Shown here one piece after another: positions 23,501 through 41,500 of a stretch of DNA of 64,000 nucleotides (its first letter is position 1; each line of letters starts with the position of its first letter). This stretch comes from Eimeria praecox (lineage: Eukaryota), in contig OY986947.1 of the NCBI GenBank assembly GCA_963920595.1, positions 2,728,001-2,792,000 on the forward strand, written 5' to 3'. The notes under the pieces were generated by a model. That model did no database searches and had not been told where the DNA came from. It saw nothing but the letters and a program-made list of their open reading frames with translations. The translations under genes and the position numbers were made by a program.

Positions 23501-26500
23501 GCACTGACAGTTGCACCTCAATATCCGGAGGAAGAGCTGGAACGCATGCTTATGGCTCCAGCGGAAAGACCCTCTGCCTACAGCAAGCAAATGCATAGCA
23601 AGGTACACCGAGTTAGAAGCACGCAGAATATGGGATTGCCTTCAACAACAGGTAAATGCATACAATTCAATTGATGCCGGAAATACAGTGCAGTGAATGG
23701 CACGTCGCGTATCCCTTCCCCCTACTTTCTTTCAAACGCACTGAATGGCACTTCGCATCAATGTATCCCTTCCCCCTACTTTCTTTCAAACGCACCGACT
23801 GCCGCCTCAGTCATATGGCTTCCTTATGCATTGATACCATAAGCAAAGGCGCTCTTCAAAAAGGATCTTCACCACCCTTTCCTACGAGCCGCAAAGCGGT
23901 ACGGTCAAGATGTGACGTTCGCCAGAACCGTGCCAGCCACAGGAATACCCGAAGCCTATCCTTCCAAATGCCTGTACGAGCGAACTGTCCCCACAAATGG
24001 CCTTTTGGCGAATTTAGCACCGCCACGACTGTAGCATAGACAACTGTTGCAGATGTTTCCTGCTGCATTCAGGAAATGGGAGGTACACTTTGCCCCAAGG
24101 ATCCCTTACGAAGAGCAGCCGACTCTCAACCTACTCAACCTAGGGGGTCGCACTGGTAGTTGACTGGCAACAGAGTATCGGCTAGCCGCGCACAATCTGG
24201 GAAATTAAGTGAAGGCATACAGCGGCGAGAATGAAGAGGCCTCTAGCTTTGAGGGAGACCGTGGGTCGATCGCTCCCTATGCGAAAAGTCTACAAGCCGC
24301 CCGATGCAGGCAAAGGTGAAGAAGTACTGCTATTTCGTTGCACAGGTTTGCCAAGCCGGCGACCGAAGCGTCTATCGTTGCCAAATTAGTAGATATCATC
24401 TAAATGCCACGATAGCCCTCGCAGCCTTCCCTCCCTAGCAGAATGCTAGACTCACGAGCTAAATGCTCAACACTGCCCCCATCTCAATGATCAGATTAAA
24501 CACGAACGGTTTTAGTTCCCATGTTGATGCTGGAAAGCACGTGGAGGAGCAACGGCTGAGTCGGATGCACCGTATTAGTACAAAATATCACCGCGCCAGC
24601 AGGCAAGACAGAGGCACCCTAGTCCACTTACAATCTGCCCGGCATTGCACAAAGCTGCTTCCTAAACACACTTGACCGACTTGGTTTCCGTGACAATTCC
24701 CTTAGGCTAGAAGTAGCACATCTACGCTGGACTATTCCAGAAGCAACGCGCTACAATCTTTGTAGGCGCTAAACACAGTTGCCATCTAACTGCGTTATCA
24801 GTCCTACCGCTTAGACAGGGACGCTCGGCTGCAACGTTCATTGCCTTTTATCTGTTAAATGCTGATTTTTCATTCAACTGAATTCCTGATGATGTGCGAA
24901 AAAAGCATGTGTCTCCTCGTTTGTAGCCCATTCACACTTGGCGCACATCCTAGCAGTTCGACGGCAAAAAATCTGCACCTTCGAGCGGTTAAGTGTACGC
25001 AGGCGTTTCAGCTGTTCACCAAATGCTTATCTCCCTACCTTTGTGCCAAATATAATAGAGCAAGGTGCGCTGCTGTTGAAGGAGTTCGCATCGCCACAGT
25101 TCAAGCTCCTGCAGTTGCCAACTCATCGCTACCGCGCCAGACTGCCGATCTAAAATGGCATGCCCAACCATCACGTAAGGGGTGCAATAGCAGCAGTTAG
25201 CCGTATCTATATCGCTTTTTAGGCAAAACGTTTCCTCCCGTTTGCCGAGTATGTGGGGTTGCTAGCACACTTTCTGAATACCCGTTGGCTCCCCGCAGGG
25301 TACGCTAGAGCATTCCGAATCGTGGGATGATTAATTCAAGGACCACCTGGCAAACAAGCAAAGCCCCTATCCATTTCATTCTAAAGTTTGCTAGCGTCAT
25401 CACATGGGAAAGCGTTCACGCTCCTTGCGTATCATCTGATAGTATTAAGCGTAGTGGCTACCAGCATGTCTCGTTTTATGGCTCTCTGGCCGCACACTTA
25501 CTGCGCACTTTGCTTTTTGCTCACATATCTAGGGAACTGGCACGCATTCGGGACTCACTCCCTAGGGATGCGGCGGACTTTCTAAGCCTCATTCAACTCG
25601 TCTCATGACCCCAGAAACGAGGAGGCACCTGACAGCATGTGCAGCGCCTACCGTTTTTGCTAGTCCAGCACTAATATTATTGCTCTCCTGCCACTCCATT
25701 TTCACCCCTCTACCTGAGATGCATGTGAAAGAGATTCTCAGTAGTGGCACGGCACGTACGCCCTATATACACAAGTGCATCAAGCCTCAAAAGACAAATA
25801 TGATGGTGGACCCGCCAGTGCTTGACTAGTAACCCGAGATACAAAATACTCAGAGAGCCATTAATGCAGAGACAAAAAGCGTCGGGTACTAAAAAAACAC
25901 TGAACACTGCTTGCATGTATACGCGCCTCAGCGTTGGGAAGGACGCTGCAGCTGCATTTGTCACAATTCTGCAGCCAGTCTATATTGCAAACAAGATACA
26001 ACGGTTGTCACATTCTGCATAGCTTACACACGAAGTGGAACGAACTCTCTAAATATTATACCCAGTGGGCAAGAATAACTCGATGCATGCTTATTGTAGA
26101 GTATCGCACTGGGGAATCTGAGGAAACGCGCAATACCAGATGGCGTACAGTCTAACGACATGAAAAGATAGGCTACTTTTAGGGTATTTATTTCATCTGA
26201 AGGCCGTAAAGCGAACTTCACCCGAAGGCAAAGTAGCCTTCGCCTACTCTAATACGTCCGTCAATGGTGCAGTGTTGCCATGGTGTGCGAAAGATACACG
26301 AAATGCATCATCTGGATAAAACCGTCTTCCGCCTCTAAGCTCCACGGTTTAGAGGCTTCGTTCCAACTGTCCTGCAAACAAGCAGATGACACACTGGGAA
26401 CGCTCGTTCTTATCATGCATCTCACCGTCTAGAATAGAAAAGCCTTCTAGCGTCTACTGCTTAGTCTACAGTGCTGGAAGCACCGCATCAGTACTTCTTG

Positions 26501-38500: not shown

Positions 38501-41500
38501 TGCAAATGACAGGTGGAGAACCAGTGTGTGTAAACAGCAGTGTAGCAAGCCAGTGAACACAAACACGGGCTGCGGGATATGCTAAGTTACATAAACATAT
38601 ACAGCGGTTAGCACCTTGAACACGTAGGCCCTGTCTGCTGTTTTCTTAGAAGGAATCATTTCAAAATGCCACAAAAGACATTGAAGTACGATGGCAAAAG
38701 GCGGGCTGTACAGAGATCACAGCAGCATTACCACTTGGAGAATTGGTAGCCCGCACAAGTGGTTTACGCAACCCACTAGCATAACCGTGCAACACCAAAA
38801 GAACTTCCGCTAAGACTGTAGCCTACAACCTGGTAGCACAAAGCCGGCGACCACAGGTTAGCCGATGTGGCTAAGATGGCCAGTTGCAGTACTACGGTAC
38901 GTGCTCGCCGAAAACGGAAATCGCGTAACAATGCAGATTGCACTCCAGAAGTACATAGCTCGGATATGCAAATTCCTCCCAGAATACCATCATTTGGGCA
39001 ATCCGGATGGGCTCGGTTCCCAAGATCTATGCGCTGCAACAAAAGGTGCCGGTGGCAAGCCTAGATCACATCATGCACGTTCGCGCATCAACGCCGCAAT
39101 TTGAAATATGCATAAACCGCACTCCCTTATGGGTTATGCAAGGCGCACGTCTTCCATATCCCAACTAAATGATCGAGATATGGCCGCTGGCAAGAAAGAG
39201 ATGTTGCAGAAAAGTGCTGTTTTTGGTTGGCCACCGGGTGTTGCGTACACTCTTTGTAAGTTAACGAGCACGCCAAGGTGAACCAATCTGCTATTCCTAC
39301 ACTGCAGAACTAGGTTAGATGTTGAGACCCTGCATACGCATAACCTTTAGGTTTCTCAGCTACACCGAAATATACAATCTTTAACAAAGTAAGCAACAAA
39401 CCCGCGTTTTCCCTTTGTTTTTTTCCCGCCGCAACTCATAGTTTGTGAAGGTGACGCACTATCTGCATGCAGGCGCACTATCTCCTGCATTCTGTATATG
39501 GAAACGGCCGGCATGGCCAGCACCGCTAAGGTGGAGCTATAGCCGCAGACGCTTCCTCAACAAACGGCCAAGCCTTGCATTGGTAGCAACACCCATGAGG
39601 CATCGAGAAATGAGCGGAGGCGAAGCTTTTCGTTGAGCACATACAATCTGCAGCACAGTAGGACTCGATGTTTCCAACTCGAAAATCGCTGTGGGGGTCG
39701 CCCCGAGCATAGTTCTGCCGCAAGGTTTCCCCCTAACAGCCACTATTTGCCACCGCTCAAGCTGATCATAAGCACCTATAAGTGCTCTTGAAGGGTGCTC
39801 AGTGGGCTAGGTTTCGACTGTCTTCCATGCTCTTGGCAAGCAAACTGAACGCTCTGCAACAACCACACTTGTGCTGGTTCCGCTTCTTACTATCTTGCTC
39901 AATTCGCGCTTGAACGAGTTGCTGCACGCTTCCTGCACCACAATTACCTTGGAGTATGCCTGCTGTGGCAACAGGAAAGCAGCAAAAGTGAACGCCTGGA
40001 AGACTGCACTACGCATTTGGACCTTTTGCTGAATATAGGCTTAGCGGAGCCACGAAGAACGCTCCCCGTAATATAGAGCCTTGATACTATGTGCACCAGC
40101 AAAGAAAGCTCTCCTTTAATTGTGGACAGTAAGTGTTGCGCAGCCCCCTGACAAGCGTAATGAGCCTCCAGTCTCTAGAAAATATGTCGTGGGCCATCAA
40201 TCACCTCTGGTGCTTACCATCTGAAGGCTCAATGAGATTTGTTGTGCATGGGACCCCCGTTAGGAGGCCTGGTTTCTAGCTCTCATACGAGCACAATGGA
40301 CCTTTTCTCTGGTCATGCACAAGATCAACTCTCTTACTTCGTGACTGTAAGCGCACATGCCAAAGCGGCTTATAAAATCGGGTCTTTCCACTGTTGATCG
40401 ATAGAGTCTTAGCACACAGATATACGCGCCTCGTCGTACATGCTATTTGAAAAGTATACCTTTGTTTTTTGTGTGTGCTTTTCGTCACTTGGACTGCAAG
40501 TAAAGCAACAGGTGAAATTCAAGGCAAGTATACAGTTTATCAGCATGATCAAAAGAGCCGAAGCAAGGCCTATTGTACTGGAGCTTCGTATGCTGAGGAG
40601 TCAGTTTTGAATTGAACAATGTATACAGCAAGCTTCCAGTGTGCGGCATGCTCGCCTCACAGCGTACAAAGCAATTCGGCAGCAATGAGAGCAACCCATG
40701 TGCTCTGGCTCGTCTAAGACGTAAACTCTGACGCACAGGCTAACGCGACAGAGAACTCCACAGCTGGAATCGACTAATGAAAGGCACTAGCAAGCCATGC
40801 GAAGGCATAAAGGCGGACCGCACTGTGCCCTGTCGATCCTTCGCGGATGCGTAAGGGTGAGAAGCTCCTAATAAAGGTATGATTCTAGTTGGCATTTTCC
40901 CAAAACGTACCCACTGTTTATTAACTAGCAAAAGACAATACTGGACGGTGGTAGACTGCTTTGACAAGCGTTCAGCGTTCATAAACAGAGTCGGTGAACG
41001 GGTAATGCCATCTCCAAGGCGAAATCAAAGCACGCGGCGCAGCGTACTATCTAAAGGACACCAAAACAGTGGATGGAAAGTCTCGTTGCTGCACGAAATG
41101 GGAACTCGAATGTTAAACAAGTAAATACTTCATTTCAGCCTTGAATGGATTCTTCAAAGCTTGGATGTAGATGCCGTGCCGGCGTACAGGGAGGGGACTC
41201 AGCACTCAAGTATGCGTACAGTCTGCCACCAGCTTAAGGCTCAAAAAGCATTTTCATGCTCTGAACACACACTCCAGATGCATACATATTTGCCTAAATG
41301 CACAGGTGCATAGTGACAACGTTGGCGCAAGTACTGCGGGAGGTAGATACACTAGTAGAGCAAAGCCTGCACAGAGAACAGCGAGAGCGTATCATACATT
41401 TCGCGGGCAAAAGTGCAAAACCGTACAATATTGCATCTTTAAAACAAAGAGAGCCACGGCTTCAATATGGAACGAGGGCTAAAATGCATAAATCAGACAG

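Follow-up and report, generated by a model that had tools for sequence, protein, structure and literature searches.

A probable chain of one-codon exons across a 64-kb stretch of Eimeria praecox DNA, and an unsupported ubiquitin-like reading of its triplets

We report that a 64,000-nucleotide stretch of Eimeria praecox DNA (GenBank assembly GCA_963920595.1, contig OY986947.1, positions 2,728,001 to 2,792,000; here called the window and numbered from its first letter) carries on its minus strand a long row of sites in which an acceptor-like AG and a donor-like GT enclose exactly three nucleotides. Specifically, 143 sites that follow the rule HAG-NNN-GTRNG run from 63292 to 342 with a single stop triplet among them; 40 lie upstream of an ATG triplet at 40218-40220, 55 in 23796..40220 and 48 downstream. 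The chain reaches both ends of the window and runs off it at the 340..13158 side. The DNA has a eukaryotic character (approximately 49% GC, microsatellites), and the features are, in the order in which the minus strand would be read:

54394..63292, minus strand: tandem array of approximately 5 x 1607 bp flanked by diverged copies; each unit contributes one Lys and one Asn candidate exon, giving a predicted (KN) repeat.
43114..53469, minus strand: tandem array of approximately 10 x 1052 bp, two candidate exons per unit (Gln, Glu), predicted (QE)10.
40440..42941, minus strand: eight more candidate exons of one codon each, in unique DNA that precedes the ATG.
40218..40220, minus strand: ATG triplet between the acceptor CAG and the donor GTAAG, which probably encodes an internal Met.
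23796..40220, minus strand: 56 candidate one-codon exons found by the site rule, with mutually unrelated putative GT-AG introns of median length 261 nt.
27640..28783, no strand: (TATATC)n-type microsatellite of 1.1 kb, inside the 1954-nt putative intron between candidate exons 29247 and 27290.
25498..25500, minus strand: TAA triplet, the sole stop among the 143 sites; it follows the previous donor by 58 nt and has probably arisen by chance.
13320..23782, minus strand: continuation of the chain in unique DNA, growing charged (E/K/R-rich) toward its end.
340..13158, minus strand: array of 3.1-3.4 kb units (98-99% alike) with older copies 67-82% alike, mostly Arg/Glu candidate exons, predicted charged helical tract.

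The sites were counted by strand and per acceptor-donor spacing, using the above rule and a stricter form, YAG-NNN-GTRNG. On the minus strand between 14 and 42 kb the stricter form gave 71 sites at the 3-nt spacing and 3 to 14 at each other spacing from 0 to 39, while the plus strand had four and 100 Markov-3 simulations a mean of 8.3 (maximum 16). With the HAG form there were 90 minus-strand sites at 13-43 kb compared to a mean of 12.7 over 39 other spacings, and all 16 bins of 4 kb had 4-15 sites on the minus and 0-3 on the plus strand. The donors of these 90 sites are GTGCG (35), GTACG (12), GTGAG (10), GTAGG (9), GTGTG (9), GTATG (8), GTAAG (4) and GTGGG (3). Moreover, only five of the 89 gaps in this region are shorter than 110 nt where 26.4 were expected (reached in 0 of 20000 simulations), a scarcity such as a minimum intron length would give. 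Donors with any GC were seen 84 times at the 3-nt spacing (66.8 ± 8.2 expected), yet GCRNG showed no excess (8 vs 6.8); exons with GC donors are thus unsupported as a class, and a few of them may be present in the chain.

The triplets themselves are protein-like in one phase. The composition in phase 0 scored +20.2 bits for protein versus intron, compared to -24.1 in phase 1 and -12.3 in phase 2, and the phase-0 score was reached by none of 5000 random intron draws, nor by any draw from two context-matched controls (3000 draws each). Stops at 13-43 kb number 1, 9 and 4 in phases 0, 1 and 2, respectively. The preliminary description of this DNA, which was made from the letters alone, stated that the other two phases stop early within 23796..40220; they do (7 stops and 1), but phase 2 has no more stops there than phase 0. 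The GC content by triplet position is 0.58/0.33/0.28. Third positions thus have 28% GC compared to 49% in the putative introns (13000-43000), which may mirror a constraint that splicing places on the final base of an exon.

Reading AG-NNN-GTRNG sites from 40220 to 23798, and leaving out a twin with a GAG acceptor at 39481, reproduced exactly the triplet string given earlier, with 56 positions including the stop at 25500; 55 of the acceptors are C/T/A-AG and one, at 29809, is GAG. The mean at other spacings in this part is 7.4 sites (the plus strand has 0-3 per 4 kb), and approximately 4-8 of the 56 triplets may have arisen by chance. The likeliest ones are the stop at 25500 and one of the pair 31276/31217, since these have gaps of 58 and 56 nt while all others there are at least 116 nt. 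The ATG had been taken as the start of the reading; 40 stop-free sites precede it and the chain spans the entire window, and therefore it is probably an internal Met rather than a start codon. The putative introns of the unique part share no mutual likeness in 4270 pairs (best score 46, null maximum 47; best within 23796..40220, 42), and an initial likeness between the introns at 14664 and 12371 stayed within the null. Repeats lie in two of the longest introns: the TATATC-type microsatellite and a (TA)30 run at 18114-18173. In 13320..23782, gaps of 1387, 781, 781 and 642 nt may hide exons.

Diverged duplicates in the window (blastn, 67-82% identity) retained AG and GT at the 3-nt spacing in 25 of 25 mapped site pairs, which correspond to about four independent comparisons. 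Among the array copies, none of 8, 8, 8 and 12 AG/GT positions was variable, a comparison of low power. These copies are 96-99.6% alike and lie beside older copies that are 67-82% alike. The kilobase arrays (43114-53469, 54606-62488 and 2150-13158) are satellite-like, although a single unit would lengthen the product by no more than two to six amino acids. In the 3.4-kb array the final unit (11375-11835) falls 330 bp short of the others and is missing three of their candidate exons, and a diverged copy of the Lys-exon unit at 62960 with the codon AGA may be a decayed or a weak-donor exon. As roughly measured by contig depth relative to the unique linker in run X2, the 1052-bp array is present at about 10x and the 1607-bp array at about 4-5x. 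Run X1 shows a greater relative depth of the 1052-bp unit at 52590-53436 than X2 does, and a copy-number difference or summed overlapping contigs are possible reasons.

The part 28850-43100 is covered by contigs of three public runs, which come from two studies, and both arrays tested (1052 and 1607 bp) are also present in independent DNA-like runs. All three runs contain a second haplotype that differs by approximately 3% in this region, which makes it likely that the source organism is diploid. Judged from 40 of 544 and 40 of 132 rows of haplotype variants, one variant, in the former set, falls in a triplet: a change from Val to Ile in the candidate exon at 38829, which was found in all three runs. 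A single skip was seen, of 30727-30897; it occurs in one low-depth contig, has TA..CA ends and a 22-letter side, and does not match the predicted introns. In the non-redundant part of the window 153 open frames have at least 78 amino acids, and the 150 longest gave no Pfam match over the cut-off; Rfam gave no match in the window, and besides the triplet chain no other coding signal was seen within it.

Taken together, we consider it probable (roughly 70%) that the 143 AG-NNN-GT sites belong as one-codon exons to a single large gene. Its product would be a low-complexity charged protein with a unique segment of about 70 residues that is not of the ubiquitin type. The sequence statistics lend good support to the earlier premise of a protein spelled by ordered phase-0 exons of 3 nt. 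The spacers of 110-450 nt would then be spliceosomal GT-AG introns with the donor GTRCGY and a short, weak acceptor, presumably defined across the intron, as an exon of 3 nt offers too little room for recognition across the exon. Each splice would add one amino acid and any skip would keep the frame; most exons are probably included in order. The young arrays, together with the older copies, suggest that tandem duplication of intron-plus-codon units may lengthen the (KN), (QE) and R/E tracts, while the unique segment would be much older or of other origin since its introns share no detectable likeness. In the predicted order, Lys/Asn and Gln/Glu repeats are followed by the Ile/Val/Leu/Gly-rich segment of about 70 residues and a Glu/Arg-rich tract. 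Charged residues cluster along the chain (58 of 5000 shuffles were as extreme) and a strongly amphipathic helix is predicted at 35865-32876 (helical hydrophobic moment 1.74). This outline, a charged linker, a small alpha/beta segment and a long charged helix, hints weakly at a scaffold or cytoskeletal-type protein.

Several points weigh against this interpretation. The 1052-bp array gives the weakest signal (7-8 sites compared to 4.0-4.4 per 4 kb at other spacings), and that signal consists of two AAG-acceptor sites repeated ten times. One stop in 90 unique sites, with about 3.8 expected, is weak evidence when taken alone, and blastn seeds on conserved words and so favours duplicates in which the sites are kept. 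Moreover, the diverged copy at 62960 has both a changed codon and a GTCCG donor, and neither a clear pyrimidine tract nor a branch-point motif above control was detected. No transcript was seen in the three matching public runs, which include no RNA run; splicing and the order of inclusion are predictions from the DNA. Finally, neither a gene end nor a longer exon was found within the window, and the predicted product has no validating family match.

A stronger version of the one-codon-exon interpretation, namely a constitutively spliced protein region of well over 100 residues in which each codon is its own exon and each intron is independent, so that a transcript of 64 kb or more would be shrunk more than 100-fold, seems to us possible but somewhat short of an even chance. 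Should other genes of the organism be built alike, they would form a class that is invisible to all annotation and homology search, and its spliceosome would have to link 3-nt exons error-free hundreds of times over. The chain would directly test the spliceosome on exons too short for exon definition, and its arrays illustrate a way in which dipeptide repeats could lengthen, at a cost of approximately 500-800 bases of DNA per amino acid. Genes of this kind would escape gene finders, tblastn and short-read mappers.

The main remaining rival, which we regard as unlikely, is that the triplets constitute a pool of one-codon cassettes with alternative inclusion, as reported for the truffle nank genes, of which the full concatenation is seldom or never made. 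Searching the concatenation for a fold would then be misleading. Such a pool agrees with the frame-neutrality of every exon and would account for the missing family match. However, the unique-region introns are unrelated (best pairs 42-46, below the null maximum), unlike what recent amplification would leave, and the order of the triplets is non-random, as seen from the charge clustering and the amphipathic helix. No NACHT, ankyrin or other long exon was found by Pfam in the 150 open frames of the window, and the haplotype variant at 38829, the one in a triplet among the 40 of 544 variant rows, is conservative.

We consider it quite unlikely that the sites are non-coding, whether as recursive splice points, remnants of a decayed gene or a pattern of other origin. 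Three observations would fit non-coding DNA: the lack of an RNA run among the matching runs, the lack of a family match, and a coding share of just 0.67% of the window if all sites are exons. Recursive splicing is disfavoured because AG/GT junctions with 0-nt spacing are not enriched at 13-43 kb (6 compared to the mean of 12.7, with 90 at 3 nt), and the phase-specific protein-like composition and the near absence of stops argue against non-coding DNA in general. Transposon footprints are disfavoured since the intron ends lack terminal pairing of that kind; neither introner-type terminal repeats nor hairpins across exons were above control.

Very unlikely, in our view, is the proposal of the preliminary description that the unique triplets, when concatenated, form a ubiquitin-like (beta-grasp) domain from which approximately 15 residues were missed. 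The score against shuffled triplet order had been set beforehand as the measure, and it came out against the proposal. In pairwise alignment to a fetched ubiquitin, 571 of 2000 order shuffles scored as well (283-802 with other gap settings), and with a narrow profile built from 174 near-canonical domains 640 of 2000 did so. Because the power of the narrow profile was poor (11.5% of degraded controls exceeded 5 bits) it was replaced by a broad profile built from 552 divergent ubiquitin-like domains with 18-76% identity to ubiquitin, derived from the 150 best of 54537 cluster representatives. With this profile the chain scored 0.1 bits and 248 of 2000 shuffles were as good; the score was 0.6 without two doubtful sites and -0.1 for the extended chain. 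The best pairwise score over 690 domains was equalled by 11 of 100 shuffles. Held-out domains gave a median of 89 bits when intact, 18 bits after removal of 15 scattered residues (95% above 3 bits) and 34 bits after removal of a block of nine plus six, although these domains were taken from tandem proteins that also supplied the training set and therefore overstate the power for distant members of the clan.

The residues supposed to be missing, as weak-donor or longer exons, have left no statistical trace: weak-GT sites at 3 nt number 44 with a background of 44.2 ± 5.9, and spacings of 6, 9 and 12 nt show no excess. Between 32686 and 30948, where about nine residues are needed, there is room for at most five extra 3-nt exons, and when a spliced alignment could draw on any of 1700 candidate exons, 22 and 20 of 60 column-shuffled profiles did as well. 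What speaks for the domain is that five residues near 30948 (30948-29809), and only these, align at the matching place in both ubiquitin and the broad profile, and that the predicted strand-helix-strand order fits a small alpha/beta fold. A type-I ubiquitin-like domain (PF00240) was rejected, as its length of about 72-76 residues and the conserved spacing from helix 1 to the last strands were not found in the chain and the score did not exceed that of shuffled order. Likenesses to DCX and KOW were noted by eye; for DCX, a motif scan gave 118 metagenome stretches, 70 of them in frame and none DCX-like by eye, and PF03607 was absent among 401 prokaryotic genomes. Searches of prokaryotic genomes with PF00240 returned near-canonical ubiquitins only. 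Eighty prokaryotic genome records contain a ubiquitin that is 84-96% identical; many of these lie on short contigs and likely represent eukaryotic or viral contamination, and some lie on megabase contigs. The exon architecture is likely real as judged from sequence, while the ubiquitin interpretation is unsupported and the label should be dropped.

The weakest alternative, a degenerate piece of the PEP-synthase/dikinase nucleotide-binding domain (PF01326) suggested by a motif in the same string, is treated as chance: it outscores ubiquitin and beats shuffled order with a profile of 20 members (Escherichia coli PpsA, 12 plasmid-borne relatives and 7 of 120 database matches), giving 3.5-3.8 bits over 21 residues around the GV.F motif (0 of 2000 shuffles as good for 23796..40220, 3-4 of 2000 for longer chains), but the family was chosen after looking, the E value of approximately 0.002 for a single comparison becomes about 47 across 24736 Pfam families, the Q.MV before and G.GE..V.G after the motif (kept in at least 18 of the 20 members) are absent from the chain with the alignment ending before them, and one of 96 unrelated decoy proteins also reached 1 in 300 shuffles by pairwise score.

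With respect to known systems, the literature searched, from which most subscription papers (e.g., Iotti 2012) are missing, describes no long row of one-codon exons whose introns are unrelated. Ubiquitin and type-I ubiquitin-like domains (PF00240) share with the chain one five-residue motif that aligns in place, whereas score, length and spacing do not fit. The Schistosoma MEGs combine mixed exons shorter than 36 bp with two long flanking exons and a signal peptide, and encode secreted products of approximately 10 kDa (PMC4671649). Like these, the chain described here would have a coding part of short symmetrical exons with lengths divisible by 3 (here 3 nt, phase 0), but all exons detected are 3 nt, and neither a flanking exon nor a signal peptide was found in the window, both ends of which the chain reaches. 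The aphid bicycle and megacycle genes also have many small exons of one phase, with more than 100 microexons and approximately 2000 amino acids in megacycle (10.1101/2021.09.24.461719); their exons are in phase 2 and hold many codons, in contrast to phase 0 and one codon each in the chain. Isolated microexons of 3 nt are reported from animals (PMC13149111) and from the dinoflagellate Amphidinium carterae (PMC12584245). Common to them and to the chain are 3-nt exons of the spliceosome type, which there are cassettes or single cases in ordinary genes and here would form an unbroken row.

Closest are the nank genes of the truffle Tuber melanosporum, which are reported to have codon-sized, alternatively spliced mini-exons (PMC4986451, PMC13449251). 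Both systems have tens of frame-neutral 3-nt exons in a row, in the present case as predicted by sequence statistics. Here, however, approximately 140 sites extend over at least 63 kb with putative introns of 110-450 nt that are mutually unrelated in the unique part, and where the truffle exons reside in a NACHT-ankyrin (NLR) host gene, the 150 open frames have no Pfam match over the cut-off and the gene would extend beyond the window. The long unrelated introns of the unique part, and codons that appear to spell a complex ordered sequence, set the chain apart from the published truffle case, and approximately 140 consecutive one-codon exons would represent a limiting case of exon-intron structure.

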